The notes beneath the pieces were generated by a model. It made no database searches and had not been told where the DNA came from. It saw only the letters and a program-made list of their open reading frames with translations. Below are positions 30 to 64,000 of a stretch of 64,000 bases of DNA, in pieces. The first letter of the stretch is position 1; every line of letters starts with the position of its first letter. The stretch is from Isurus oxyrinchus (taxonomy: Eukaryota): NCBI GenBank assembly GCA_026770705.1, contig JANJGN010000010.1:67208001-67272000 (forward strand). The letters are read 5' to 3'. The translations under genes and the position numbers were made by a program.

Positions 30-690
30 GGGCAGGATTTTTACCTCATTGGGCGGGCTCAGCGGGCATTCCCGGGAGCTGCTGCAAAGCCAGCTGCCGC
101 TTGCGATCTAGCCCCAACCTTGATTTCATGCTGGCTGGCCAATTAATGGCCAGCCAGCGTGAATCGCCGCTGCAACACTCAGCGCTCTTGGGTGGGGGGG
201 AGGGGAGGAGTGCGAGCACAGAAGTCAGGGCATGCACACAGGTGTGCCCACAGAAAGCTCCCTGAAGGCACAGAGGCTGCATCAGCGAGCTGAAGATTTT
301 CAACATTAAAAATAAACAATCATCCGTCACATGAGCAGGGACATATTAAAAATGAGTTTCAAAAGCCTTTCTTTTAAATCACTGGTCGAAACCTTATCCC
401 GCCCGTGGATGAGGTTTCACAAAAAATGCAAAAGTTGCTTGGCCTATTCGCCCGCCTACCAACCGAAATGTTGGACAGGCAGAGAAAAATTTCATTTAAT
501 CAATTGATTCAGGACCTTAATAGGCCTCTTATTTGTTGGCGGGTGCACTGCCACCCTTATGCGCGCCCGCTGAACAGAATATCACGAGAGTGCACGATGA
601 CGTCAGGACACTCTCCCAATGTCATTGCGCACTATTTTTCTCACATTTGGGTCGGGTGTGCGCCTGCCTAATGAGGGAAAATTCCTGCCC
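30..690. mobile_element. Harbinger-type MITE
   Basis: ~30-bp TIRs gggcaggatttttacctcattgggcgggc / gcctgcctaatgagggaaaattcctgccc, 3-bp flanks cat/tat, same termini as the autonomous element at 39448-47176. Confidence 0.8.
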
Positions 691-944
691 TATGATGCTG
701 TTGCACTAAATGTTCCATTCAAGTTCTGTAACACTTGAATATTGTGTTGCTTATAGCGTAAAATAATGAACATTTTTGAGATATCATCAATGTACTCAAT
801 CTTTTGTAATAGTATTTTGGTACGTTAGAAGAGTATTTTCTCTGTAATAATGTTAAAACATCTAAATTAGGATGTAATTTGCCCTTCATTGTTTTATGGA
901 ATTACTGATCCATTGCAATAGTCTGTGGATTTTTATTTTGAAAG

Positions 945-1310
945 TATCTACTTGGCTTAGTGGTAGCACTGTCACCTCTGAGTCAGAAGGTGTGGATTTG
1001 ATCATATATTCTTTGCTAATACTTAAGTCATTACTGAGGTGCTGCATTGTTGACCTTATGTTTTATGTTAAATCAAAGCCCATCTCCCAGTTTAGTGGGT
1101 GTAAATGGTGCGAAAAAGGCTAGGCAGTTCCTTTAGTAACCTGTTTGATATTCCACCCATGACTAACATTAGTAAAACAGATTATTCAGTTATTAAGCTT
1201 ATTTTCTGTTTATGGGATCTTGCCATTCACAAATTAGCTGCCATTTTTGTCTTGAAAATAACAGTGACTGCATGTTCCTGATGACATGAAATAGCACTGT
1301 ATATATGTAA
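945..1310 (+). mobile_element. Old tRNA-derived SINE, DeuSINE/SacSINE-like
   Basis: tggcttagtggtagcactgtcacctctgagtcagaagg head, then a degenerate ctgaggtgctgcattg and tgggatcttg body. Confidence 0.5.
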
Positions 1311-2414
1311 TTTCCAATTTTGTTTATCTCTCCAAACAGCTGCTCTACTGGTGACTCTTTTTTTCTCTTTTGTGAAGAACCTTCAGGCAGACTTTTTGTT
1401 TAAAGATGCAACACAGAAATTGTAGAATAATGGGTCTTGCCATAGCAATAATCAACCATAGCGAGGCAATAGCAACAAGTGTTTCAGCAAATACAAATTT
1501 TGTAACAGGCTTTAATATTTTACAAAAAGCAGGAAACCGATCAATTTTCAGGGCTATCTGTATGCATCAGGTATTTAACTAAAATAATCAGATTGAAAAG
1601 GCTAGTATTACATACCTTGCTCATTAGCATTATCAAAGCTCTGCAGATTTCATCTGTTAGATGACATGATCAGCTTTACTGTTTTATTATTTTTTGTGTT
1701 AGTGTAGGTGCTTTGATCATCTACTCAACTCGTTTCTATTAAAATATAAATGTTTTCTTGTTTAAATTCTTGTTCACGGAAAATTATTGGAAACACACCA
1801 GTGTAGTTAGGATTCATTTTATTCACACGTTTTCTCCTAATCAAAGTTTCCTTCAAAACACAGGAGGGAACTATTCGAGTTTCTGTAATGAACACAGCAG
1901 GAAACATCTTCATGTAGAGGAGACTTCCAGTTGTGATGATGCTGGACACATTGCATCAAAAGTAGGAAGAACAGGAGAGCAAGGGCTGGGTAATTTCAAG
2001 GGCAGTAAGAAATGGACAATTAGGACTCTCTACTACCCAATGTAGCAAGAGTAATGTGGGCAAAACTGCAGTGAAAAATCGTATATACAGAGACTGCTCC
2101 ACATTAGCAACACAGCTAATGAAGTTTGTATTCTAATTCATCCAGTCAAAAAGCAACATCCAGGCAGCACTAATGGCACAAATGAAAATGCTCACGATAC
2201 TAAACCACTATGCCACTGTAAATACACCATTGCTAGATTCAGTCAGTGTTCACCACTGGACCACAGAGGTAACAGATTCTCTATTTAAACATGGATCTGT
2301 GTATCTAATTTCAACTTTAGTTTGAGAGCAGAGCCAGTGTTCTGAGGCAAGTGACATTCCTGGCTACAGGGCGCCATTGATTGAACTCATATAAATAATC
2401 ATGTACATATGGAT

Positions 2415-3750
2415 AGGAACATAAGAATGTAAGAAATAGAAGCAGGAGTAGACCAATGGCCCGTTGAGCATGTTCCACTATTCAACATGATTATGGATAA
2501 TCTCCTGCTTTTATTCGACTTTCCTGCCTAGTCCCCATACCCCTTGATTCCCTGAGAAATCAAAGATTTGTCTACCTCAGCCTTAAACATAATTCACTCT
2601 CTCCGCTACCAGCGCACAGTGACAATAGTGTGCACCATGTATAAGATGCACTGCAACAACTCACCAAGTCTCCTTCAACAGAACCTTACAAACCTGTAAC
2701 CCCTCAAAGACAACAGATGCATGGGAATACCACAATCTGCAAGTTCCCCTCCAAGCCACACACCATCCTGACTTGGAACTATACTACTGACCCTTCACTG
2801 TTGCTGAATGAAAAACCTGGATCTCCCTTTCTAACAGCAATGTGAATATATCTACATGACATGCACTGCAGAAGCTCAAAGAAGCAGCTCATCTCCACCT
2901 TTCATGGGTAATTAAGCATGAGCAACAAATGCTGCCTTGCCAGAGACGCTCATGTCCCGTGAAAGAATAGGAAAAAAAACCTACCCAACCTTCTTCAATG
3001 ATTGTGCACATGTAATCCCTGGTTTCTCTGTTCCTGCATCCACTTTAGAATTGTTTTATATATTTTATATTGCCATTCCTCGTTCTTCCTAGCAAAATGT
3101 ACCACTTCACACTTCTCTGCATTAAGTTTCCTCTGCCACTTGTCCGCCCGTTCCATTAGCCTACCTATGTCCTCTTAAAGTCTAACACTATCCTCCTCAG
3201 TTCACAATGCTTCCAAGTTTTGTGTTATCTGCAAATTTTAAAATTGTGCCCTGCATATTATGTCTAAGTCATTATTATGCTTACAGAAAAGTGATGGTCC
3301 TAGAACTGACCCCTGGGGAATTGCACTGTACACCTTCTTCCAATCGGAAAAGCAAGTATTCACCACTACCCTGTTTCCTGTCACTCAGCCAACATTTTGC
3401 CTATGCTGCCTCTGTCCCCTTTACTCCATGTGCTTCAACTTTGCCAGCACTTTATCAAGCACCTTTTGGAAGTCCATATACAGGGTATCCCACATCAACC
3501 ACTTTACCCTCATTAATCATCTCTGTTACCTCAGCAAAAAACTTATTCAAGTTAGTTAAATATGATTTGCCTTTAACAAATCCATGCTCTCTTTCACTAA
3601 TTAATCCACACTTATCCAAATGACTATTAATTTTGCTTCATATTCTCATCTGCAAAAGATTTCCCACCACAAGGTTAAACTGACTGGCCTATAGTTGCCG
3701 GGTTTAACCTTACATTTCTTTTGAACAAGGGTGTAGCATTGTACATATCG
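2415..3750 (-). mobile_element. CR1 LINE fragments (mostly minus strand, with a + strand CR1 3' tail at ~2595-2980)
   Basis: Minus-strand KPGNYRPVSLT RT motif (ORF 3646-3834) and a gaacataagaa 3' microsatellite end. Confidence 0.7.
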
Positions 3751-3811
3751 AAAGTTGAAATGAATAAAGTTTGAAACCCATGCCTTACATTTAATTTCAA
3801 CTGCTTTACAG

Positions 3812-3949
3812 GTCCTTTCGTGGATAAGGCGCATTCAGTCTTAGACATGATCTCCACCACTCTGCTTCAGATGGAGGAAGAACTGAATGAACTGGATAGG
3901 GAAGCAGGAGATGGTGACTGTGGTGTTACACATGCAAGGGCAGCACAGG
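3812..3949 (+). CDS. TKFC: TKFC internal exon (start of DhaL domain): [46 protein letters not shown]
   Basis: Acceptor tttacag| and donor |gtcagt. LNELDR-AGDGDCG-TH is the DAK2/DhaL signature. The phase 1 end joins the next exon in frame. Confidence 0.95.
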
Positions 3950-4339
3950 GTCAGTTACTGAAAGAATGCAACTCTGAGAATTTGAAAATAATTGTTGGTA
4001 AAATGTTGGCAGTACCAATGGATGATTTAGGGATGTGGGACTGAAATGTCAACAATGTGTACCTTCAACTAAATTTAAATCATGCCAACTCACTGATTCA
4101 GTTCCTTCCTCGAGAGATATCTGTACAGTGACGAATCAGTGAGTAACTGATTCAGAAAGATCTCTGTATGGTAATGTCTTTCAGTTCCTCCCTTTGGTAC
4201 AATAAGGAAACTTCTGCACCCATGCTTTTTTCCCATTGAGTGATTGAATTGATTTAGCAATATTGTAGAGCATCAAATGTTTTTAAATTGCAATGAGAAT
4301 GAGACATTGCACTTGAGTCCATTTAATTCATAGGATGTC

Positions 4340-7300
4340 TATAATCTGTGTTGTGGACTGTACACAACCCTTTTAGCCTACTAACAACTTTCCTTTCCCA
4401 GAAGCTCAAGACAATCATTCTTTGCACAATATTTAAATGTCTCCACCTTTATTCCAAAACGTCGAGCTCTTTTTCAAAAATTATTTTTCCTTTTGCTAAA
4501 TACAGTTCTACAAGAGAATGGTATGCTGTTGAACCCACATATCCCTAAAAATCTCATGATTACTGGTTTTGTTATGGGAATGGGAAACTGTACAACTGAA
4601 TGTACCTTTGCTGCTCTAGGCAATACTTGTTCCTGACCCGCCACGTGGTAGGTCACCTGATCCTTAGCGAACTTGCTCTTTGCGAGATTGATCACTAGGT
4701 AAGCTGACTGTAATTTCTTGAAGAGGGCTTCCAGCTGCTTTCTGTGAGTTTTCCAGGTGTCACTGTACACTAGGAAGATGTGTAGGTACATTATACAGTT
4801 GGATAAGCCTGCCACTACCTGGTTCATAAGCCTTTGAAAGGTGGTTGAGGCATTCCCGAGTCCAAATGGCATGACTCGACACTGGTATAACCCATCCGGA
4901 ATCACAAAAGTGGAGATTTCCTTCGTGCGGGCAGTCAAGGGAACCTGTCCATATCCCTTGAGTAAACCTACCTCTGTAATGTAGGCTGCATTATCTACCT
5001 GACCTATGCAGTCTTCCAGGCGGGGAGTTGGCTCTGGTCACTATTAACCTTGCGGTAGTCAATGCAGAGGCTTGGGCACAAGCAAAATGGGGGACCTCCA
5101 TCTACTGCTGCTGGGCTCTGTTAGTTGGTGCTATAGCATGCAGTTAATCTCCTCCAGAACCCAGGCCAGCTTTTCTGGACCTAGACAGTAGGGATGTTGC
5201 CTTATGGGAGGGACCTCTCCCACATCCATATCATGTACAGCCGAAGTGGTTCAGCGTGGCTCACCTCTGCAGATGTTTTTAAATGCAGTGAGCAGCCTTG
5301 TCTGATGATCTCACTTTTCTGCACTTAGATGGGTGAATATGGTGTCCAGCTTCACTAAAATTTCTGTGTTTGCTAGCTGGATAGTAAGAGGTTCAGTGTG
5401 GGCCTCACCCATGTCTCCCTCCAATTCACCCTCTTTGTTCCTCTCGTCCTCCAGGTCTGTTGTTATTGGACAGACCGTATACCCGCTTCTCCCATTCTCG
5501 CTGTTGCTGACATGACACAAGCCTTTGCGTTTTCCTGTGGTCTGGTGTGTCAATTAGATAGTTAACCTTCCATAGCTTCTTTGCTATTCTGCATGGGCCA
5601 CTGAAACAGGCTTTTAGGGGTTCACCCAGTATTGGTAGGAGCACTAGTATGTTGTCTCCTGGCTGCAAGGTTTGTTTATCTGCCTGTATTTTCATAGCTG
5701 TTAGGGAGATTTTTCAGTGTTGTTGAACCATATCACAGGCTCTCGTGAGTCACTCATGGAACACAGGTACGTAGTTTAAAATGGATATTTCCAACTTCTG
5801 TTCTAAAAATCTCTCCTTGATTAGTTTCCAAAGATCTATCACTTGGTGTCCGTAAACCAATTCAAGTGGAGTAAAACAGGTGAACTCATTGGGTCAGTCT
5901 CTGTACCAAACAGAAGAAAACCTAGTCTTTTATCGTAGTCAAGTCATGAGGGTACTCATGGCAGTATGCCCTGATCATTGTTTTTAGGATCTGGTGGTAC
6001 CGTTCTAGTGCCCCCTGCGGCTGCACGTGATTTGCCTAAGCCTTCAGCTGGGTCACACCCAGGTTACCCATGACTTCCTGGAATATTTGGGACATGAAAT
6101 TTGAGCCCTGATCCAACTGGATCTCGGTGGACAGTCCGTACCGGGTAGAGGAATGTGTTAAGTCCCCCACTACTGTTTTAGCAGATAGGGTTCTCAGGGG
6201 AATGGCCTCTGGAAGTGGGTCGCCACATCCATGATGGTAAGGAAATACTGGTTTTGTTTTGCGCAGGGGTCCCAACCACACCTTACTGAATGCTTCCCCA
6301 AAAGCCAGCATGGGAATCATAGGTGCAGGTTTTTTGCAGCCTGGGGTTTTCCCACAGCCTGACAGGTGTGGCAGGATCTGAAAAACCTTACTACATCCTC
6401 GTGGAGGTGTGGCCAGTGAAAATGCTGGCTAATGTGAGATTGAGTTTTCCTTATACCAACATGCCCAGTCATTGGGATTTCAATTGCTAGTCTTATTATT
6501 TTCCCACGGTGCCTCAGTGGCACCACTACCTGATGGATCACTTTCCACTCCTCGTTTGTAGGTCTGTGAGGGGGCCCCCACTTCCTCATCAGCACATAAC
6601 TTTTACTGTATTAACATTCAGGGATTGCCTGTGTCTCCACTTCAGTTTGGGCAATCTGAGCTAAACTACAACCAAGGAAGACCCATTTTTAACCTCCTTA
6701 GGGTCCTCTAGGCTACCCAAAAAAGACCTCAGATAACCTGACAGGGTCATCTGTCTACAAGTGCCAATTCAGCTGCAAGTGATGGAGTTTGTCTGACCAT
6801 AGACCAGGTTACCACACAGTTAAGGAAAATGCCAAGCACTTTCTCCTGCAGCAGTTCTGTCTCCCTGACCTCAGTCAGCTTCTCTGAGACTACTGGGGAT
6901 GCTATCACTTTTGATCCTGCCAGGTCATTGCTGAGGAGCAGGTTGACCCCATCCACGGGCAAACTGGGGACGACTCCCATGGTTATAGGCCCTGACAAAA
7001 GGTTGCACTTCAGGTGCACTCAGTATAAGGGGATGGGTATGTACCTGCCTTCAACATCCTTTAACAGCACCTTGCCACTTATTCCACTATCTAGTGGAAA
7101 GGTCATGCCTTTTCCCAACAGTAGATTTCGGTTGGCACCTGTATCCCTCAGTATCACTGTAAGATTACCTACCTGGGAAAATGTAGCCACTCTTCTGTCT
7201 CATACAAAATCCTGTAACCCTCAGGGATTTTTAAAAATCTGCACTCACAGAGGTGTGCCTACAGGGATTCGCTGCCACTGTCAGAGCCATAGCCTGGTCT

Positions 7301-11719: not shown

Positions 11720-11740
11720 ATGGTATTTGAGCTGAGATGC

Positions 11741-11876
11741 TAGTTCTGATGAAAGTTTATAAACCTGAAACATTAACTCCATTTCTTCCTACACAGGTGC
11801 TGTCAGGCCCACTAAGTAATCCCAGCCTTTTCTGTCTTTATTTCAGTTTCCAGCATCAGCAGTATTTTGCTTTTGT
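11741..11876 (+). mobile_element. Short PLE 3'-end fragment with a canonical hammerhead core (11742-11778)
   Basis: AGTT-CTGATGA-...-GAAA-CATT-AACT, followed by the PLE terminal sequence and tail ccagcatcagcagtattttgctttt. Confidence 0.7.
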
Positions 11877-13790: not shown

Positions 13791-14341
13791 CTCATGAATT
13801 TGTTAGCACAGTTGTTATGTTACTGGACTAGAAATCCAGAAGTCTGGATTAATGATAGGAGGATTGAGTTCAAGTCCCACGATGACAGCTATAGAAATTA
13901 AATTCACAAAAGCTAGTATCAACAAATGTGACATGAAACTACCAGATTGTTGTTAAAACCCCATTCTAATCCTCTGAATCCATCCTGGTTTATATGTAAC
14001 TCCAGATTCAGAGCAATGGCTTTTAACTACCCTTCTGCTCTAGCTAGACATCCAGTTGTATCAAGTAGCTATGATAAAGGGTTTAATAAGAATGAAACTG
14101 GACGGACACACAGCATCACCCTAGACACTGGAAATATCAAGAGGACACCCAGCCCAGTCAACCCTACATTATCCTCTTCACTTATATCTGGAGATTTTTA
14201 CCAAAATCGAAGAGCTGTTCCACAGACTAGTCAACCAACAGCCTGGAAGAAGCACTTATTTATTGCCCATCCCTAATTGCCCTTGAGAATTGAGTGGCTT
14301 GCTGGGCCATCTCAGAGGCCTTTAAGAGTCAATCAACTCAA

Positions 14342-14448
14342 GGACTCGAAGTTCTGTCGAAGGGTCATGAGGACTCGAAACGTCAACTCTTTTCTTCTCC
14401 GCCGATGCTGCCAGACCTGCTGAGTTTTTCCAGGTAATTCTGTTTTTG
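14342..14448 (+). mobile_element. Short PLE 3'-end fragment with hammerhead motif (14350-14388)
   Basis: Essentially identical to 28581-28680 from the hammerhead onward. Confidence 0.9.
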
Positions 14449-23507: not shown

Positions 23508-24165
23508 GGCACACGCTAGTGATGTTATGCTCTTAAATGAAAACATCTCCTTTAAATGTGATTGAGATCCAAATTGTAGAGAGCAGTTGCTTCTGGGCTT
23601 CAGGATTGGTTTTCTTTAATGTTTATTTTTCTGGACATATCTCCATGGATGAGGTAGGCTGCATACTAACTTAAAACAAAAACAGAATTACCTGGAAAAA
23701 CTCAGCAGGTCTGGCAGCATCGGCGGAGAAGAAAAGAGTTGACGTTTCGAGTCCTCATGACCCTTCGACAGAACTTGAGTTTGAGTCCAAGAAAAAGTTG
23801 AAATATAAGCTGGTTTAAGGTGTGTGTGTGGTGGGCGGAGAGATAGAGAGAGAGAGAGGTTGGCGGGGGGGTTGGGGGGTGGGGGGTTGGGGGTATGGTT
23901 GTATGGATAAACAAGCAGTGATAGAAGCAGATCATCAAAAGATGTCAACGACAATGGTACAATAGAACACATAGGTGTTAAAGTTAAAGTTGGTGATATT
24001 ATCTAAACGAATGTGCTAATTAAGAATGGATGGTAGGGCACGCAAGGTATAGCTCTAGTGGGGGTGTTTTTTTTTTAGAATGGAAATAGATGGGAAAAGG
24101 AAAATCTTTATAATTTATTGGAAAAAAAAGGAAGGGGGAAACAGAAAGGGGATGGGGGAGGGAGC

Positions 24166-25392
24166 TCACGACCTAAAGTTGTTGAATTCAATATTCAGTC
24201 CGGAAGGCTGTAAGGTGCCTAGTCGGAAGATGAGGTGTTGTTCCTCCAGTTTGCATTGGGCTTCACTGGAACAATGCAGCAAGCCAAGGACAGACATGTG
24301 GGCAAGAGAGCAGGGTGGAGTGTTAAAATGGCAAGCGACAGGGAGGTTTGGGTCATTCTTGCGGACAGACCGCAGGTGTTCTGCAAAGCGGTCGCCCAGT
24401 TTACGTTTGGTCTGTCCAATGTAGAGGAGACCACATTGGGAGCAACGAATGCAGTAGACTAAGTTGGGGGAAATGCAAGTGAAATGCTGCTTCACTTGAA
24501 AGGAGTGTTTGGGCCCTTGGACGGTGAGGAGAGAGGAAGTGAAGGGGCAGGTGTTACATCTTTTGCGTGGGCATGGGGTGGTGCCATAGGAGGGGGTTGA
24601 GGAGTAGGGGGTGATGGAGGAGTGGACCAGGGTGTCCCGGAGGGAGCGATCCCTACTGAATGCCGATAAGGGGGGTGAAGGGAAGATGTGTTTGGTGGTG
24701 GCATCATGCTGGAGTTGGCGGAAATGGCGGAGGATGATCCTTTGAATGCGGAGGCTGGTGGGGTGATAAGTGAGGACAAGGGGGACCCTATCATGTTTCT
24801 GGGAGGGAGGAGAAGGCGTGAGGGCGGATGCGCGGGAGATGGGCCGGACACGGTTGAGTGCCCTGTCAACGACCGTGGGTGGAAAACCTCGGTTAAGGAA
24901 GAAGGAGGACATGTCAGAGGAACCGTTTTTGAAGGTAGCATCATCGGAACAGATGCGACGAAGGCAAAGGAACTGGGAGAATGGGATGGAGTCCTTACAG
25001 GAAGCGGGGTGTGAGGAGCTGTAGTCGAGGTAGCTGTGGGAATCGGTGGGTTTGTAATGGATATTGGTGGACAGTCTATCACCAGAGATTGAGACAGAGA
25101 GGTCAAGGAAGGGAAGGGAAGTGTCAGAGATGGACCACGTGAAAATGATGGAGGGGTGGAGATTGGAAGCAAAATTAATAAATTTTTCCAAGTCCCGACG
25201 AGAGCATGAAGCGGCACCGAAGTAATCATCGATGTACCGGAGAAAAAGTTGTGGAAGGGGGCCGGAGTTGGACTGCAACAAGGAATGTTCCACATACCCC
25301 ATAAAGAGACAGGCATAGCTGGGGCCCATGCGGGTACCCATAGCCACACCTTGTATTTGGAGGAAGTGAGAGGGGTTGAAGGAGAAATTGTT
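24166..25392 (-). pseudogene. 5'-truncated inverted copy of the PLE ORF (RT C-terminal half plus GIY-YIG)
   Basis: The 393-aa ORF is nearly identical to the C-terminus of ORF 26258-28192. Confidence 0.92.
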
Positions 25393-25442
25393 TTTTTTGT
25401 TTTTATCTCTGTGTTTAATTGACTGCCACTGCTCTTCAAGAA

Positions 25443-28192
25443 ATGCCTACCTCCTTGAAGAAGTTCTGTTCCTCTCTGCGACAAGATTTCCGTATCTCTC
25501 TATTGCCTAATTCACCTTTGCTTTCCATTTCCCTCCTGGTGTTTGATAAGGTGTTTACTAAAACCCGCTTTCACAGCCATATCTCCTTTCTCAGTGACTG
25601 TCTCCGTCTCCGACTTACCCCACGTGGATTTCAACTGAAATTCCACCCCTCATGTTTCGAACCCACCCAGGATTACCGGTATCTCCGGGACATAAAACGT
25701 TTCTCGGACTGCTGTTCCCGTCACATTCTGAAATCCACACTCAGTGCCATGCGCCGCCATATGAACACACTCGACCTCTCCCTCCAGCAGCACCGCCGTA
25801 CCCTTTTTCAAAGCTGCGCGTGCCCCCAGTTTCATTTTATCCTTCGGCTCATCCGACGCCTCAACAAGAAACTTTTTCTCTTTCTTTCAAGTGCTAAGGA
25901 ACACAAGCTCCAACAACTCATCGACACCATCACCCATCTAGGACCCTCCACCCCTGCCTGTCCCTCCGTCCCCACCCTTTCTTCCAATCCCAACCCCAGC
26001 CGTGTATTCACTATACCCCCTGACCTTCCCCTCTCCGATGCTGAACGTTCAGTGCTCAGCAAAGGACTTAGTTTCATACCCTTACGCCCTCACCTCAATG
26101 AATCTCGGGCTCTGCATGATACTGAACTCTTCTTCCACCGTCTTCGTCTCCGGGCTCACTTCTTTGGGCAGGAGTCCTCCCAGTTCAACGGATCCTTTTA
26201 CCCATCTCCAATATTCTCCCTCCACCTGGACCCCTCCCTCTGGATTCTTACCTTCTCTTGATCTTTTCATTGAGAACTGTCGACGCGACATTAGTCGTCT
26301 CAATTTCTCTGCTCCTCTCACCCATTCTAACCTGTCTCTCTGAACTTACTGCACTCCATTCTCTCAGGTCCAACCCTGACATTGTCATCAAACCCGCTGA
26401 CAAGGGTGGTGCTGTTGTTGTCTGGCGCACTGACCTCTACCTCGCGGAGGCTGAGCGTCAACTCGCAGACACTTCCTCCTACCTCTCCCTGGACCATGAC
26501 CCCACCACTGAACATCAAGCCATTGTTTCCAGGACTGTCACTGACCTCATCTCCTCTGGGGATCTCCCTCCCACAGCTTCCAACCTGATAGTCGCCCAAC
26601 CTCGGACGGCCCGCTTCTATCTCCTACCCAAAATCCACAAACAGAACTGCCCCGGTAGACCGATCGTCTCAGCTTGCTCCTGCCCCACAGAACTCATTTC
26701 TCGTTATCTTGACTCCCTTCTCTCTCCCCTTGTCCAGTCCCTTCCCACTTACATCCGTGATTCCTCTGACACCTTACGTCACATCAACAATTTCCAGTTC
26801 CCTGGCCCCAACCGCTTCGTCTTCACCATGGACGTCCAATCTCTCTACACCTCCATCCACCACCAGGTTGGTCTGAGGGCCCTTAGCTTCTTCCTCGAAC
26901 AGAGGCCCGAAAAATCCCCATCCACTACTACTCTCCTCCGTCTGGCTGAACTTGTTCTCACGCTGAACAATTTCTCCTTCAACTCCTCTCACTTCCTCCA
27001 AATAAAAGGTGTGGCTATGGGTACCCGCATGGGCCCCAGCTATGCCTGTCTCTTTATGGGGTATGTGGAACATTCCTTGTTGCAGTCCTACTCCGGCCCC
27101 CTTCCACAACTTTTTCTCCGGTACATCGATGATTACTTCGGTGCCGCTTCATGCTCTCGTCGGAACCTGGAAAAATGTATTAATTTTGCTTCCAATCTCC
27201 ACCCCTCCATCATTTTCACGTGGTCCATCTCTGACACTTCCCTTCCCTTCCTTGACCTCTCTGTCTCAATCTCTGGTGATAGACTGTCCACCAATATTCA
27301 TTACAAACCCACCGACTCCCACAGCTACCTCGACTACAGCTCCTCACACCCCGCTTCCTGTAAGGACTCCATCCCATTCTCCCAGTTCCTTCGCCTTTGT
27401 CGCATCTGTTCTGATGATGCTACCTTCAAAAACGGTTCCTCTGACATGTCCTCCTTCTTCCTTAACCGAGGTTTTCCACCCACGGTCGTTGACAGGGCCC
27501 TCAACCTTGTCCGGCCCATCTCCCGCGCATCCGCCCTCACGCCTTCTCCTCCCTCCCAGAAACATGATAGGGTCCCCCTTGTCCTCACTTATCACCCCAC
27601 CAGCCTCCGCATTCAAAGGATCATCCTCCGCCATTTCCGCCAACTCCAGCATGATGCCACCACCAAACACATCTTCCCTTCACCCCCCTTATCGGCATTC
27701 CGTAGGGATCGCTCCCTCCGGGACACCCTGGTCCACTCCTCCATCACCCCCTACTCCTCAACCCCCTCCTATGGCACCACCCCATGCCCACGCAAAAGAT
27801 GTAACACCTGCCCCTTCACTTCCTCTCTCCTCACCGTCCAAGGGCCCAAACACTCCTTTCAAGTGAAGCAGCATTTCACTTGCATTTCCCCCAACTTAGT
27901 CTACTGCATTCGTTGCTCCCAATGTGGTCTCCTCTACATTGGACAGACCAAACGTAAACTGGGCGACCGCTTTGCAGAACACCTGCGGTCTGTCCGCAAG
28001 AATGACCCAAACCTCCCTGTCGCTTGCCATTTTAACACTCCACCCTGCTCTCTTGCCCACATGTCTGTCCTTGGCTTGCTGCATTGTTCCAGTGAAGCCC
28101 AATGCAAACTGGAGGAACAACACCTCATCTTCCAACTAGGCACCTTACAGCCTTCCGGACTGAATATTGAATTCAACAACTTTAGGTCGTGA
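25443..28192 (+). pseudogene. PLE RT plus GIY-YIG endonuclease ORF, probably Neptune clade, with two frameshifts (~26180 and ~26340)
   Basis: LSKGLSFIP, KPADKGGAVVV, FYLLPKIHK, GRPIVS, MDVQSLYT, GVAMGTRMGPSYA, RYIDD, CPRKRCNTC linker, LVYCIRCSQCGLLYIGQT...RFAEH. Spread over ORFs 25419, 26002 and 26258. Confidence 0.92.
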
Positions 28193-28581
28193 GCTCCCTC
28201 CCCCATCCCCACCCCCTTTCTGTTTCCCCCTTCCTTTTTTTTCCAATAAATTATAAAGATTTTCCTTTTCCCATCTATTTCCATTCTAAAAAAAAACACC
28301 CCCACTAGAGCTATTCCTTGAGTGCCCTACCATCCATTCTTAATTAGCACATTCGTTTAGATAATATCACCAACTTTAACTTTAACACCTATGTGTTCTA
28401 TTGTACCATTGTCGTTGACATCTTTTGATGATTGCTTCTATGACTGCTTGTTTGTCCATACAACCACACCCCCAACCCCCCAACCCCCCCACAACCTCTC
28501 TCTCTCTTCTCTATCTCTCCGCCCACCACACACACACCTTAAACCAGCTTATATTTCAACTTTTTCTTGGACTCGAACTCA

Positions 28582-28620
28582 AGTTCTGTCGAAGGGTCAT
28601 GAGGACTCGAAACGTCAACT
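28582..28620 (+). ncRNA. Minimal type I hammerhead ribozyme motif in the PLE 3' region (core variant CUGUCGA), predicted cut after GUC at 28616
   Basis: Stem I AGTT/AACT, CTGTCGA, stem II GGGTC/GACTC, GAAA, palindromic ACGT in place of stem III. Copies at 23737-23775(-), 44136-44174(-), 46371-46409, 51822-51860, 58804-58842, 63011-63049(-). Confidence 0.75.
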
Positions 28621-28721
28621 CTTTTCTTCTCCGCCGATGCTGCCAGACCTGCTGAGTTTTTCCAGGTAATTCTGTTTTTGTTTTGGATTTCCAGCATCCG
28701 CAGTTTTTTTGTTTTTATGCA

Positions 28722-28728
28722 TACTAAC
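28722..28728 (+). promoter_or_regulatory. Probable splicing branch point (TACTAAC) for the TKFC exon at 28782
   Basis: Perfect U2 branch consensus. No AG dinucleotide lies between it and the acceptor AG at 28780-28781. Confidence 0.65.
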
Positions 28729-28781
28729 TTAATTGTTTTGCCTGGATCCCAATCTGCACTATGTTATGCCTTTTATCCTAG

Positions 28782-28871
28782 CTTGATTCACTGTGTCCTG
28801 CTGAGGAGGAGTTAAGTAAATTGACAGATGAAGATAGCAATGAACTGCAAGTGCTGGCTGAGGCTGTACAG
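28782..28871 (+). CDS. TKFC: TKFC penultimate exon: LDSLCPAEEELSKLTDEDSNELQVLAEAVQ
   Basis: ttttatcctag| acceptor and |gtaggg donor. LDSL completes the GDRTMLD motif. 90 nt, phase 0-0. Confidence 0.93.
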
Positions 28872-29564: not shown

Positions 29565-29738
29565 AAAGCTGAAGCAGGTGCAGAAGCCACCAAGGATATG
29601 ATAGCAAAGGCAGGACGGGCAAGTTACATCTCTTCCGCTCAGCTCACCCGACCCGACCCAGGTGCCGTGGCCTGTGCTGCCATTTTGAAGGCCATCTTGA
29701 CAGCTCTTGAACAGCCTACTCCAGAAGGGCAGGAATAA
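29565..29738 (+). CDS. TKFC: TKFC last coding exon: [57 protein letters not shown]
   Basis: tctgtttccag| acceptor, GRASY and PDPGA motifs of DhaL, TAA at 29736-29738. Confidence 0.96.
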
Positions 29739-36626: not shown

Positions 36627-36856
36627 ATAAAAGCAAAATACTGCGGATGCCGGAAATCTGAAATAAGAACAGAAAATGCTGGAAAAACTCAGCAGATTTG
36701 CCAGCATCTGTGGAGAGAGAAACAGAGTTAACCTTTCAAGTCCGTATGAAATATATGGCTCTAAAGAAGAGCCATACAGACTCAAAACATTAACTCTTGT
36801 TTTCCTCTCCACAAATGCAGTCAGACCTGTTGAGTTTTTCCAGCATTTTCTGTCAT
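36627..36856. mobile_element. Miniature inverted PLE insertion: two 3' ends pointing outward
   Basis: Minus-strand end with tail (36627-36749) plus plus-strand end with a degenerate hammerhead (36757-36853). Degenerate 14-bp TSD tatcccatttttag (36613-36626) / tacctcatttttag (36857-36870). Confidence 0.75.
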
Positions 36857-37417
36857 TACCTCATTTTTAGGTTTGCCTAATGCTACTCCTGGAATGTTCT
36901 CCTGCACTATGCATTGAACCAGGTTTGATCACCTGCCTTGATGGTAATGGCAGAATGTGGGATATGCCAGTCCATGAGGTTACAGATTGTGGTTGCCTTG
37001 CCAATGAGTACATCAATCCATGGAAGCCTAATTTTGAGCTGCCAAGTCCTAATTCATTCCATTTAACACGGTTGTAATGCCACACAACATGATGAACAGT
37101 ATCCTCAGTGTGAAGATGGGACATTTATCTCCACAAGTACTGTGCAGTGGTCACGCCTACCAACACTATCATGGACAGATGCATCTGCGAAAGATAGATT
37201 GGTGAGGGTGAGGTCAAGTAGGTTTTTCCTTCTTATTGGTACCCTCACTGCTTGTTGCAGTGCCAATCTGGCAGATGATGTTCTTCAGGACTCAGCCAAC
37301 TCAGTCAGTAGTGGTGCTTCTGAGCCGCTCTTGGTAATGAGCATTGAAGTCCCCCACCCAGAGTACATTTCTGTGCTCCTGCTACCCTCAGTGCTTTTTC
37401 TCAGTGGTGTTCAACAT

Positions 37418-43088: not shown

Positions 43089-46000
43089 CTAGCTGAAGGT
43101 TCATTGGATTAAAGTGTCCTGGATGTCCCTGCCTCCTTGGTGTAGTAGCGGGTCGGCGTGCTGTCCCTCATCATTGCCCTGTGCTTCCTCATCCTCTGAG
43201 CCACTGCTGGATTCATCATGTGCAGCCTCACCTATTGATTCAAGGCCTTCATCGTCAACTGCGTCCCCCCTTCCCAGCGCAAGATTGTGCAGAGCACAGC
43301 CTGCTACCACTGTCACAGAGACGCGATCTGGGCGCTACTGGAGTGTACCCCCTGAACATTCCAGGCAACGGAAGCGCATCTTGAGAAGACCAATGGTTCT
43401 CTCCACCACAGCCCTTCTGGTGCCATGGCTCCTATTGTAGTGCTCCTCAGCTTCTGTTCTTAGATGGCAGAGAGGCGTCATGAATCATCTTCTGAGGGGA
43501 TAGCCCTTATCACCCACCAGCCAACCATCCAGTCGAGCCGGAGCACTGAAGAGCCCCGGCATCTGGAAGTGTCTGAGGATATAGGCATCGTGGGAGCTGC
43601 CTGGGTACCTTGCACAAACTTGCAGAATCTGCATTCTGTGATCACACACTATCTGCACGTTCATGGAGTGGAATCCCTTCCATTGATGAAGGCACCGGGC
43701 ACACCTGCTGGTGCCTTGATGGCCACATGTGTGCAGTCTATTGCACCCTGGACACGGGGGAAGCCAACAATGGCCAATAAGCCTCTGGTTAGCTATGCCT
43801 GACTTGCCTGGTCACAGCGGAAGTGGATGAAGGTCAATGCACATCTGAACAGAGCGTCTGTAACCTGCTTGACACAAGTGTGGACAGTTGATTGGGAGAC
43901 ACCGCAAAGATCACCCACCGAGCCCTGGAAGGAGCCAGAGGCATAGAAGTGGAAGGCAACTGTGACTTTCAGAGCCACTGGCATGGGGTATCCACCCACA
44001 CAGTTGGGGGATATCTCCCAGCCAATTATCTGACAGATATAAAAGCAAAAAATTGCGGATGCTGGAAATCCAAAACAAAAACAAAAATACCTGGAAAAAC
44101 TCAGCAGGTCTGGCAGCATCTGCGGAGAGGAACACAGTTAACATTTCGAGTCCAAATGACCCTTCAACAGAACTAAGTAAAAATACAAGAGAGGTGAAAT
44201 ATAAGCTGGTTTAAGGTGGGGGGGGACAAGTAGAGCTGGACAGAGGGCCAGTGATAGGTGGAGATAACCAAAAGATGTCATAGACAAAAGGACAAAGAGG
44301 TGTTGAAGGTGGTGATATTATCTAAGGAATGTGCTGATTAAGGGTAGAAAGCAGGACAAGCAAGGTACATATAGCATGGTGGGGGTGGGGTGGGGTGAAG
44401 GAATCAAAAAAGGCTAAAAGATAGAGATAAAACAATGGATGGAAATACATTTAAAATAATGGAAATAGGTGGGAAAAGAAAAATCTTTATAAATTAATGG
44501 AAAAAAGGGGGTATCGGTGTGGGGATGGGGGAGACAGTTTATGATCTAAAATTGTTGAACTCAGTATTAGTGCGGAAGGCTGTAAAGTGACTAGTCGGAA
44601 GATGAGATGCTGTTCCTCCAGTTTGCGTTGAGCTTCACTGGAACAATGTAGCAAGCCAAGGACAGACATGTGGGCATGAGAGCAGGGTGGAGTGTTGAAA
44701 TGGCAAGCGACGGGGAGGTCTGGGTAATGCTTGCGGACAGACCAAAGGTGTTCTGCAAAGTGGTCACCCAGTCTGCATTTGGTCTCTCCAATGTAGAGGA
44801 AACCACATTGGGAGCAACGAATGCAGTAGACTAAATTGAGGGAAGTGCAAGTGAAATGCTGCTTCACTTGAAAGAAGTGTTTGGGCCCTTGGACGGTGAG
44901 GAGAGGGGAAGTAAAGGGGCAGGTGTTGCACCTTCTGCAGTTGCATGGGAAGGTGCTGTTGGAGGGAGTTGCAGTGTCGGGAGTGATGGAGGAGTGGACC
45001 AGGGTGTCCCGGAGGGAACGATCCCTGCAGAATGCCGCCAGGGGGGTGAAGGGAAGATGTGTTTGGTGGTGGCTTCATGCTGGAGTTGGCAGAGCTGGCG
45101 GAGGATGATCCTTTGAATGCAGAGGCTGGTGGGGTGATAAGTGAGGACAAGGGGTCTCTATCGTGTTTCTGGGAGGGAGAGGAAAGTGTGAGGGCGGATG
45201 CGCGGAAGATGGGCCGGACACAGCTGAGGACCCTGTCAACCACCGTGGGTGGAAAACCTCGGTTAAGGAAGAAGGAAGACATGTCAGAGGAACTGTTTTT
45301 GAAAGTGGCATCATCAGAACAGATGCGACGGAGGCGAAGGAACTGAGAGAATGGGATGGAGTCCATACAGGAAGCGGGGTGTGAGGAGCTGTAGTCAAGG
45401 TAGCTGTGGGAGTTGGTAGGCTTGTAATGGATATTGCTGGACACCAGAAATTCAGACAGAGAGGTCAAGGAAGGGAAGGGAAGTGTCAGAGATAGACCCT
45501 GTGAAAATGATGGAGGGGTGGTAATTGGAAGCGAAATTAATAAATTTTCCCAGAGTGTATGAAGCAGCACCGAAGCAATCATCGATGTACCAGAGAAAGA
45601 GTTGTGGGAGGGGGCCAAAGTAGGACTGGAACAAGGAATGTTCCACTTACTCCATAAAGAGATAGGCATGGCTGGGGCCCATGCGGGTACCCATAGCCAC
45701 ATCTTTTATTTGGAGGAAATAAGAGGAGTTTAAGGAGAAATTGTTCAGTGTGAGAACAAGTTCAGCCAGACGGAGGAGAGTAGTGGTGGATGGGAATTGT
45801 TCAGGCCTCTGTTCGAGGAGAAAGTGGAGAGCCCTCAGACCATCCTGGTGGTGGATGGAGGTGTAGAGGGATTGGACGTCCATGGTGAAGAGGAGGCGGT
45901 TGGGGCCAGGGAACTGGAAATTGTTGATATGATGTAGGGTGTCAGAGGAATCACGGATGTAGGTGGGAAGGGACTGGACAAGGGGAGAGGGAATGGAGTC

Positions 46001-46749
46001 AAGATAGCAAGAAATGAGTTCCATGGGGCAGGAACAGGCTGACATGATCGGTCGGTCTGCCGGGACAGTCCTGTTTGTGGATTTTGGGTAGGAGGTAGAA
46101 GCGGGCCATCCGAGATTGGGAGACTATCAGATTGGAAGCTGTGGAAGGAAGATCTCCAGCCCTACTAGGGCTATCTGTACCTTGCTTGTCTTGCTTTCTA
46201 CCCTTAATTAGCACATTCCTTAGATAATATCACCACCTTCAACACCTCTTTGTCTTTTTGTCTGTGACATCTTTTGGTTATCTCCACGTACCACTGGCCC
46301 TCTATCCAGCTCTACTTGTCCCACCCCCCTTAAACAAGCTTATATTTCACCTCTCTTATATTTTTTACTTAGTTCTGTTGAAGGGTCATTTGGACTCGAA
46401 ATGTTAACTGTGTTCCTCTCCGCAGATGCTGCCAGACCTGCTGAGTTTTTCCAGGTATTTTTGTTTTTGATCTGACAGATATAGTTGACTGTCCCCCTTG
46501 ACAGTCAGAACCTCCTTCAGCACTACACCTCAGTCATATTGAGGTAGCTGCTTCGCCACCTGTATACCCTGGCAGCAGGATAGTGGCGTCTTCTTTGACA
46601 ACCTCTTGGCCCTGCACCCCTTGTGCCTGCGCCTGGCCTCCCAAAGGTGTCTCCCCTGGAGGCTGATAGTCCACTCCTGGTGTCCTCCTTATTCTATCCC
46701 TCCCTTCCTGCTCAGAGGAGCTGCCTCCAGTGGAGATGTCAGAACCCAT
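43089..46749 (-). pseudogene. Harbinger (HARBI1-like) DDE transposase split by a PLE insertion
   Basis: LKVTVAFHFYASGSFQ, IDCTHVAI, GFHSMNVQ, YPGSSHDAYIL, LVGDKGYPL, CALHNLAL motifs. The reading continues across the TSD (YICQI). Confidence 0.9.
44042..46469. mobile_element. PLE insertion: 5'-truncated minus-strand copy (44042-~46159) plus inverted 3' arm (~46160-46469), 14-bp TSD
   Basis: TSD atctgacagatata at 44028-44041 and 46470-46483. RT and GIY-YIG remnants in ORFs 44487-46214. Confidence 0.93.
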
Positions 46750-51659: not shown

Positions 51660-52130
51660 GATGGGTGAGACACACAGGAAGAATGAATTGATACCTGGGA
51701 ATAAGTTACACAGAGAATAATGAATACCCAAGAGCAATTTACACAGACCATTTGGTCCAGGAAGTGAATTACAGATAGAGAATTGGGTATCTGCAAGTGA
51801 TTTAGATAACCTTGAACTTCAAGTTCTGTCGAAGGGTCATGAGGACTTGAAATGTCAACTCTTTTCTTCTCCGCCGATGCTGCCAGACCTGCTGAGTTTT
51901 TCCAGGTAATTCTGTTTTTGTTATAGAGAATTATGGGTTCCCGGGAGAGAGTTAAACAGTGTGTGATGAATAGCCAGTAAGTGCTGCATACATGGGAGTG
52001 AATTTCACAGAGAATGATCAATGTCCAGGAGTGAGTTACACAGAATGCTAAATACCACAATAGAAATACTGAATGTGACTATCTATGAGCAAGTTACACA
52101 GTGCTGAATATGTAGGAGTGACTCACACAG
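51660..52130. repeat. Degenerate ~33-bp tandem repeat interrupted by a PLE fragment
   Basis: Recurrent gagtgagttacacagagaat...ccca words. Confidence 0.55.
51813..51922 (+). mobile_element. Short PLE 3'-end fragment with hammerhead motif
   Basis: Near-identical to 28580-28682. Confidence 0.9.
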
Positions 52131-53322: not shown

Positions 53323-54242
53323 CTTGGCCAGACCCCCGTGTGGTTGATAAGATTCTGTTAGGGACCAATAACATTTTGTTTAAAGTAGACAAAGTTTGAA
53401 ATCTAAGACACTTGCTCAGTGAATAAAGCAACAAGATTCCACAGGTTTTGAACAAACAAAAATAATAGAAGCTATCTCATTACTATATGGGAAAGTCCTA
53501 TGAATTTATGTGGATTATAGTAAATTATGTGAAGAGGAAAGAAAGAAAACTGGGAATGTATTATAAATTAGACATATGTAACAAAAACAAAACAAAATAC
53601 AAGTTGAAAGAATCAAAGAAAAATAACTTAAAGAGAATGATAGCCACCTTTTAGGCATAACGGTATGTGTCTGAGTCAGTATTCATTGTCATGTGTGAAG
53701 AATGCATTCGTTGGACATTGCGATGCTGAGTGCGTCTGGATATCCAGAAAGAATGATGAGTGTCAAGAGTGGTGCCGTGAATGCCTGGTCTGTGGTGCAT
53801 ACTTGGGCATCAGGCAGTTCCTGATCTGTGCAGCAGCCAGAGTTTTCAAATGAACCTGATGTGTCGCACTCTCTAAAACAGATCAGAAATGTCCGGTCTA
53901 TTGATTGCAGTCAAAGAGTCAGCATAATCTGGTCTGTGGGTTACACGAAGGAGTGTCCAGAACATCTGGAGTATCAATACCTCTAGACTGAGGCACATTG
54001 AGAGGTATCAAGGACAACAGTTTGTAAAGTACATGTGGGATGTCAGATATTTCAGGTCTGTTGAGCATGTCTGATCTGCAGATTGTTATTATCCTTGGCC
54101 AGACCCCCGTGTGGTTGATAAGATTCTGTTAGGGACCAATAACATTTTGTTTAAAGTAGACAAAGTTTGAAATCTAAGACACTTGCTCAGTGAATAAAGC
54201 AACAAGATTCCACAGGTTTTGAACAAACAAAAATAATAGAAG
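53323..54242. repeat. Identical 149-bp direct repeat (53323-53471 and 54094-54242)
   Basis: Base-for-base identity read by eye. Confidence 0.9.
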
Positions 54243-54289
54243 GTATCTGGCGTATATACCAACATTCAAGTTAAGTATGAGGTACTTTT

Positions 54290-60454: not shown

Positions 60455-60565
60455 GAACAAAAACTAAAATTGCTGGAAAAACTCAGCAGATCTGACAGCA
60501 TCTGCAGAGAGGAAGACAGAGTTAACGTTTCAAGTCCTCATCAGACTCTTCATTAGAAATAAGTA
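60455..60565 (-). mobile_element. Short PLE 3'-end fragment with hammerhead motif
   Basis: Reverse complement ttCTAATGAagagtctgatgaggacttGAAAcgttaact, followed by the PLE terminus. Confidence 0.75.
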
Positions 60566-62951: not shown

Positions 62952-64000
62952 AACAATAAAAATACCTGGAAAAACTCAGCAGGTCTGGCAGCATCTACGG
63001 AAAGGAACACAGTTGATGTTTCGAGTCCGTATGACTCTTCAACAGAACTAAGTAAAAACAGAAAAGAGGTGAAATGTAAGCTGGTTTAAGGGGAGTGGGT
63101 GGAGGGGGGTGGTGGTGGGACAGGTAGAGCTGGGTAGAGGGCCAGTGATAGGTGGAGATAGCCAAAAGATGTCATAGACAAAAGGACAAAGAGGTGTTGA
63201 AGGTGGTGATATTATCGAAGGCATGTGCTAATTAAGGGTAGAAAGCAGGGCAAGCAAGGTACAGACAGCCCTACCGGGGGTGGGATGGGGTGAAGGGAAG
63301 GGATCGAAATAGGCTAAAAGGTAGAGATAAAACAATGGATGGAGATACATTTAAAAATAATGGAAATAGGTGGGAACAGAAAAATCTATATAAATTATTG
63401 AAAAGAAGAGGGAGATTGGAAAGGGGGTGGGGATGGAGGAGAGAGTTCATGATCTAAAATTGTTGAACTCAGTATTCAGTCCGGAAGGCTGTAAAGTGCC
63501 TAGTCAAAAGATGAGGTGCTGTTCCTCCAGTTTGCATTGAGCTTCATTGGAACAATGTAGCAGGCCAAGGATGAACATGTGGGCATGAGAGCAAGGTGGA
63601 GTGTTGAAACGGCAAGTGACAGGGAGGTCTGGGTCATGTTTGCGCTCAGACTGAAGGTGTTCTGCAAAGCGGTCACCCAGTCTGCGTTTGGTCTCTCCAA
63701 TGTAGAGGAAATCGCATTGGGAGCAACGAATGCAGTAGACTAAATTGAGGGAAGTGCAAGTAAAATGCTGTAAAAGTTGCTCCAACAACTCATCGACATT
63801 AACACCCATCCAGAACCCTCCACCCCTGCCTGTCCCTCTGTCCCCATCATGTCTTCCAATCCCAGCCCCAGCCATGTATTCACCATACCTCCTGACCTTC
63901 CCCTCTCCGATGCTGAACGTTCAGTGCTCAGCAAAGGACTTAGTTTCATACCTTTGTGCCCTCATCTCAATGAATTTTGGGCTCGACATGATGCTGAGCT
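62952..64000. mobile_element. PLE insertion: inverted 3' arm (62952-63770, minus) joined to a plus-strand copy (from ~63779) that runs out of the window
   Basis: The minus arm has GIY-YIG plus hammerhead. The plus part matches 25907-26130 (...PLSDAERSVLSKGLSF). Confidence 0.9.

Follow-up and report, generated by a model that had tools for sequence, protein, structure and literature searches.

Among the typical features of Penelope-like elements (PLEs) are a 5'-truncated copy in inverted orientation at the 5' end and, at one end, a tail of 30-40 bp (PMC8557442), and the PLEs of rotifers have the same inverted, tailed and duplication-flanked form, for which self-priming was proposed (PMC3846280). 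Solo Penelope ORFs lying between two direct 34-bp repeats have also been described (PMC2377424). For a Poseidon element of the anole, PMC11167929 reports that both target strands are nicked and extended, that reverse transcription begins internally at two sites delimiting the tail, that the product is unchanged when the RNA is ribozyme-dead, and that RNA-seq reads starting or ending at the hammerhead cut are absent. Circles made by the ribozyme were proposed as PLE templates in 2014, without in vivo evidence (PMC4209133), and the idea is repeated in PMC6765202. The origin of inverted and tandem PLE copies is not yet settled (PMC8557442, PMC11167929). Both the structural pattern described below and the circle hypothesis are already in print.

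The locus analysed here lies in a 64,000-nucleotide stretch of the Isurus oxyrinchus genome (contig JANJGN010000010.1), referred to as the window, and all positions are those of the window. The segment 23673-28718 is a single 5.05-kb insertion, consisting of two head-to-head arms within one 15-bp target-site duplication. Its features are as follows, with positions past the predicted hammerhead cut given as cut+n.

23660..23674, + strand: left copy of the target-site duplication, TGCATACTAACTTAA, the last 2 nt being common to the end of the inverted arm
23673..25392, - strand: inverted 5'-truncated arm with part of the RT, the GIY-YIG endonuclease, the 3' UTR and the hammerhead; it has the short-site end (cut+68), without the tail
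25390..25392, no strand: head-to-head arm junction with GTT microhomology
25392..25406, + strand: the 15 nt left of an upstream tail, from cut+88 to cut+102, a putative vestigial 5' pseudo-LTR
25407..25442, + strand: 36-nt leader from the tail end to the ATG, to which the loose-end consensus after 28718 is compared below
25443..28192, + strand: PLE ORF with an N-terminal region, DKG motif, RT (YIDD), CX4CX2C linker and GIY-YIG endonuclease
28193..28579, + strand: 3' UTR containing simple repeats
28580..28622, + strand: minimal type I hammerhead-like motif, read by eye against the description in PMC4209133
28685..28718, + strand: 34-nt tail, from the short end site (about 28680-28684) to the long end site (28718)
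28718..28732, + strand: right copy of the target-site duplication

A preliminary description of this DNA had reported a 15-nt terminal redundancy and had seen in the main copy a single, circularly permuted unit made by copying in one round. The redundancy was confirmed, as TTTTTTTGTTTTTAT forms an exact repeat at 25392-25406 and 28704-28718, spaced 3312 nt apart, and matches no other site in the window when up to one mismatch is tolerated; by chance 0.05 matches were expected, and two copies were reached in none of 100 shuffles. The length of the repeat is uncertain by 1-3 nt, because GTT is common to its 5' side and the inverted arm, and its last T is the first base of the target duplication. 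The view of a single unit was not supported. The DNA to the left of 25392, on which the preliminary description was silent, does not belong to the host: it is a 1.72-kb arm of this element in inverted orientation (23673-25392), copying 26966-28684 with 97.6% identity over 1729 columns. Both arms are enclosed by the 15-bp direct repeat at 23660-23674 and 28718-28732, which has only these two occurrences in the window; in a control with 2000 random pairs of 48-nt windows set equally far apart, one pair had at least 14 nt in common. Within its one target duplication, the insertion comprises about 1.5 units, divided between two arms of opposite orientation. At the junction of the arms (25390-25392), there is a GTT microhomology of 1-3 nt and no palindrome. 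Head-to-tail multimers of exact units were not found at the locus, the arms being head to head and 5'-truncated, and truncated arms are joined head to head at three further places in the window. The TTTTTTTGTTTTTAT repeat was also considered as a target-site duplication and rejected, as the true duplication flanks both arms externally.

Four public runs were aligned on 25300-28800; X15 and X18 are RNA by guess only, and the contigs reveal no RNA ends, while X21 is a raw-read DNA run from which 18 reads matched. Among the best 18 of about 5150 loose ends, the top piles in X1 were at 28684 (320 contigs), 28709 (498) and 28718 (489), the pile at 28709 being a sequence variant that continues to the same long end as 28718, and the top piles in X18 and X15 were at 28709 or 28718. 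The consensus of the 489 X1 contigs leaving after 28718 begins CTCTGT, like the sequence from 25407 onward, with an agreement of only 0.38, and across the runs the resemblance to the leader at 25407 is weak (agreement 0.38-0.44). One X15 contig connects 28716 back to 25394 with 7 letters in between. The earlier proposal that the tail is in fact the sequence upstream of the ORF is supported by this contig and, weakly, by the consensus. A simple 28718-to-25407 join was not among the best 15 of about 1400 joints, where its absence proves nothing, the 22-nt leader pattern had no match in metagenome contigs, and no tandem source copy of this PLE family was seen among the material examined. Interior direct repeats around the ORF were present in two of 79 related loci (L016, 1335 bp; L035, 376 bp), as judged with a filter of 20 nt that a 15-nt repeat would escape, and with repeats at contig edges (L006, L014, L050 and L057) left out as possible assembly effects.

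The inverted and long arms differ by 24 substitutions, 5 of them at CpG, plus several indels, and derived changes are found on both arms. The copy has aged. When 18 of the 19 variable places shown for the shared region were compared between the arms (the other, within a run of A, was excluded), both arms carried the window's letter at 11 of the 18. These 11 include 27434, 27944 and 28562, where more than 90% of the X1 depth has another letter, and the difference at 27167 is also variable in the family, possible by chance. Because rare letters are common to both arms, the arms derive, on the evidence of their sequences, from one source lineage. A single full-length arm was available (n = 1).

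The ATG at 25443 lies 36 nt after the 5' copy of the repeat; in alignment with a full-length homolog, it falls on residue 1. It opens a single ORF with an RT (Pfam RVT_1, E 6e-7) and, at the C-terminus, a GIY-YIG domain (E 7e-4, just under the curated cut-off), which is disrupted by two frameshifts, near 26180 and 26335. The product is 45-55% identical to 16 RT and GIY-YIG homologs, and the closest named proteins are those of cartilaginous fishes (65-74% identity). PADKGG, YCIRCSQC..YIG, AEH and HF are found in the translation and are conserved across the homolog alignment (motif definitions from PMC8557442), and a CCHH-type motif is also present. The linker between the RT and the endonuclease, CPRKRCNTC, has the CX2-5CxxC pattern given for the Neptune or Nematis clade (PMC8557442). 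The tandem or inverted arrangement, the 30-40 bp tail at one end and the target-site duplication that characterise EN+ PLEs were all found. As judged by its motifs, the element is a Neptune/Nematis-type PLE. No upstream host exons were found, with one weak, unrelated Pfam match among 76 open stretches, and no intron is shown in this element.

Like the Neptune/Nematis-type PLEs in PMC8557442, the element has a single ORF for RT and C-terminal GIY-YIG with the DKG motif and CX2-5CxxC linker, an inverted 5'-truncated copy at its 5' end, and a tail of 30-40 bp that is confined to one end. Unlike these, its upstream direct pseudo-LTR is reduced to 15 nt. In the Drosophila virilis group, the solo Penelope ORF is flanked by 34-bp repeats (PMC2377424, Fig. 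1A legend), comparable with the 34-nt tail here, and inverted terminal arms, there of variable size, are likewise present (PMC2377424, Fig. 1C legend). Unlike in that group, the 5' end here, beside an inverted arm, has no more of the tail than its final 15 nt.

The 12 hammerhead-bearing 3' ends in the window were aligned. By automatic alignment, six of the 12 ended at cut+64 to cut+68 and four at cut+99 to cut+102. The remaining two, placed automatically at cut+79 and cut+49, were assigned by eye to the short class, as the alignment of the first continues into the target duplication of that copy, the true end being at cut+68 to +72, and that of the second breaks off where the subfamilies differ and corresponds to about cut+64. 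None of the 12 ended at the hammerhead cut itself. The main copy ends at cut+102, in agreement with the preliminary description, in which its 3' end was placed about 100 nt beyond the predicted cut (28616) and the template was held to be continuous across the cleavage site. Continuity through the cut was indeed found, but it is true of all 12 of the 3' ends in the window and is already known for PLEs. The three complete two-armed insertions all have one long and one short end within the duplication:

23673-28718: long end at cut+102, short end at cut+68, 15-bp duplication
44039-46469: one long and one short end, 14-bp duplication
36627-about 36861: one long and one short end, 9-bp duplication, a length also reached by 29 of 2000 controls

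The two classes of 3' end, together with the inverted arm, are the known tail and inverted-arm signature of Penelope elements, which is accounted for by reverse transcription beginning internally at two sites of an unprocessed RNA (PMC11167929, PMC8557442). As in the Poseidon element PAc of Anolis carolinensis, two 3' end sites past the hammerhead bound the tail, the target is AT-rich, and the template is unbroken over the cut (PMC11167929). PAc belongs to another clade and is described without a linker zinc finger (PMC8557442); its ORF begins inside the ribozyme, and its start sites are found 111-118 nt inside the ORF at an AC-rich stem-loop (PMC11167929), whereas the start sites here are in a U-rich stretch ahead of the ATG. 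The in vitro support for internal priming comes from this Poseidon element, and hence from another clade, which is a point against the mechanism favoured below.

The hammerhead-like motif has the core CUGUCGA, in which U replaces A6, an unpaired A before stem II, GAAA, and a palindromic ACGU, and the predicted cut after C28616 was taken from the motif as read by eye. U was found at core position 6 in all eight young copies, and the canonical core in only one old copy, while five relatives (L002, L016, L019, L028 and L062) have a canonical hammerhead core. An A6C change in the hammerhead is reported to reduce activity (PMC3088659). Rfam gave no match anywhere in the window, hammerhead included, a free-energy fold of the region did not recover the hammerhead, and the hammerhead and tail region folds no better than shuffles (z 0.25; z -1.09), so that no tail structure is claimed. 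Stems I and II are preserved, with a compensating change between subfamilies, and given these preserved stems the ribozyme fold may still be under selection.

We consider it fairly probable that the locus arose as one two-armed PLE insertion, in which both nicked strands primed internally on an uncleaved, longer-than-unit linear RNA. The single duplication around both arms, the letters common to them, and the long and short ends of all three complete two-armed insertions speak for it. In AT-rich DNA, the endonuclease would have nicked the two strands at points about 13-15 bp from each other. One nick would then have primed reverse transcription at the long site, with 3.3 kb copied, and the other at the short site, with 1.7 kb copied, and the two cDNA ends would have been joined via the GTT microhomology. 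Linear uncut RNA is favoured because of the in vitro result for the anole element, the non-canonical core, the presence of the 1.72 kb twice, and the long interior repeats of relatives. The 15 nt are best read as what is left of an upstream pseudo-LTR that stood on a linear, tandem transcript. A single tandem RNA, comprising a 1.7-kb partial copy and a full copy and primed at both tails, would be slightly favoured as the template, and two separate RNA molecules of one source would fit too.

Set against this mechanism are the preserved stems I and II, the failure to see a tandem source copy of the family in the material examined, the single full-length arm, and the position of the 5' end, which is at cut+88, inside the 34-nt tail and no more than 15 nt away from one exact unit. 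From the fall in X1 depth, the truncation rate is roughly 1 in 1000 per base, and a stop within the 34-nt tail would occur in about 3% of cases, a rough figure from a test made after the fact, in which contig depth is not copy number. As random truncation alone gives only about 3%, the position is probably fixed. It is likely that something fixes it; a circle would do so, as would two primings on a tandem RNA, and an RNA start just upstream would also explain a 5' end inside the tail.

Priming at two tails of one RNA can be likened to L1 twin priming. With two primings on a tandem RNA, the 5' end of the long arm falls within the tail; here the long arm would end 19 nt before the upstream short site at which the second priming would have started. 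Twin priming of tandem RNA at its two tails, such that full-length arms of inverted insertions end within the upstream tail, is put forward tentatively, as a possibility that is rather less probable than not. Among the papers listed by a literature search, none was on twin priming for PLEs, as judged by titles and the openings of abstracts.

Of the two templates that the preliminary description had offered, the uncleaved tandem transcript fits better, and the circle is less favoured and regarded as doubtful. For the latter, hammerhead cleavage and ligation would give a 3312-nt circular RNA, and reverse transcription from the long site would proceed once round, displace 15 nt and stop, and the inverted arm would stem from another priming event, either on this circle or on a different one. 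This would account for the length of the long arm, which exceeds one unit by 15 nt and so ends where random truncation would stop in about 3% of cases, and it has parallels in Drosophila texana and montana, where 34-bp tail repeats flank solo ORFs on both sides (PMC2377424). Circles have, furthermore, been proposed for PLEs (PMC4209133) and reported for related small retrozymes (10.64898/2026.07.22.740005). However, the 1.72 kb occurs twice, so that a monomer circle would have to be read 1.5 times or two circles used; cleavage was unnecessary in vitro for the anole element, and the anole reads are reported to be without ends at the cut (PMC11167929); and the core is non-canonical in 8/8 young copies. 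The unbroken sequence over the cut is equally expected from an uncut tandem and does not separate the two, because a ligated circle and an uncut tandem have identical letters there. The papers listed by a literature search on PLE circles with RNase R were general circRNA papers. A circular template is unlikely for this insertion.

It is also improbable that the locus once had an inverted arm followed by a longer direct pseudo-LTR, the ORF and a pseudo-LTR, and that it was cut down to 15 nt afterwards, either by a deletion or by another insertion landing in the tail of the first. The form with the longer pseudo-LTR is the typical one (PMC2377424, Fig. 1C legend; PMC3846280), the copy is aged, with its 24 inter-arm substitutions and several indels, and there is short microhomology at the junction. 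A second insertion is, however, at odds with the single intact duplication around both arms and with their common rare letters, and a later deletion is unnecessary, given the truncated head-to-head arms at three other sites in the window.

Self-priming, as proposed for rotifer PLEs, in which the inverted arm would arise by fold-back on an antisense template with the 15 nt as a by-product, is very unlikely: it was put forward for head-to-head inversions with palindromic junctions (PMC3846280), whereas the arms here begin about 1.6 kb apart in the element and their junction is without a palindrome, and the arms at 46156 and 63770 likewise begin at unlike positions. There is similarly little probability that the upstream hammerhead cut, or a start nearby upstream, determined the 5' end of the RNA and that a near-complete long arm lost about 87 nt. 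In favour of this, an RNA beginning at the upstream cut would be expected to give a 5' end no more than 102 nt from it, and D. virilis transcription begins inside the upstream pseudo-LTR (PMC2377424), but the observed end is at cut+88, not cut+1, and an RNA beginning at the cut could not provide the 1.72-kb arm from the same molecule.

The locus is a clean example of a known PLE architecture, in which the two-site tail rule, shown in vitro for a Poseidon element, appears also in a Neptune-type family of a cartilaginous fish. If true, either a circle copied once round or a tandem RNA primed twice would leave a record of the mechanism in the position of the 5' end, and either would account for the inverted and tailed structure of PLEs. 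One copy alone is insufficient to choose among the mechanisms. The family is very abundant and shark-type, and genome-wide counts of 5' ends could separate the circle, twin priming and plain truncation.

Non-LTR retrozymes are short, non-coding and tandem, with circles reported (10.64898/2026.07.22.740005), whereas the unit here is a 3.3-kb coding one. They have a type I hammerhead related to PLE pseudo-LTRs (10.64898/2026.07.22.740005), comparable with the hammerhead-like motif of this element.

The related locus L016 carries, at positions 685-5674, a 1.3-kb partial upstream copy that extends across the hammerhead and the tail and leads on into a long ORF. This arrangement is the type of linear tandem source inferred for the main PLE insertion. 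In a tandem, an 87-nt leader intron composed of 28666-28718 and 25407-25440 could span the junction, bounded by CAG/GTAATT at window position 28666 and by a branch-like TTGAC and an AG just before the ATG. The GT of this putative intron is missing in older copies, and no spliced join matching it was found among the contig joints listed (15 of about 1400).

In contigs from the public sequencing runs X1 and X15, only the ORF's initial stretch of 40-100 nt precedes a direct fusion to the 3' UTR or the hammerhead. These joins connect window positions 25479-25547 to 28443-28683, and three of those among the joints listed lie at 25479/25480. They may represent non-coding derivatives that are short, about 200-400 nt in length; alternatively, they may mark a third 3' end site.

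The depth of X1 contigs showed an about threefold peak at 28576-28692, and short hammerhead/end-region copies are therefore very common. Solo PLE units of ~110-140 nt, consisting only of the hammerhead and end region, are present in the window:

11740-11874, solo hammerhead/end-region unit
14336-14448, solo hammerhead/end-region unit
51811-51922, solo hammerhead/end-region unit
60456-60565, solo hammerhead/end-region unit

In young subfamilies (window 28587-28593 and seven other copies), core position 6 of the hammerhead motif is U, with the stems kept; the canonical A is retained in invertebrate-type relatives.

Besides the main insertion, the window includes three further head-to-head PLE insertions, all of older subfamilies:

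36627-36861, with a duplication and one long and one short end
44039-46469, with a duplication and one long and one short end
62952-64000, continuing past the end of the window, with a short end on the inverted arm

The terminal part of a Dak2 domain is encoded at 29568-29738 (Pfam E 1e-11), and this stretch is likely the last exon of a host gene of triokinase/FMN cyclase-like type. Upstream exons of this gene were looked for in the window and not found. The main PLE insertion may be situated in its last intron.

Elsewhere in the window, a 155-nt direct repeat (53323-53477 and 54094-54248) was observed, with 99.4% identity and a spacing of 771 nt.
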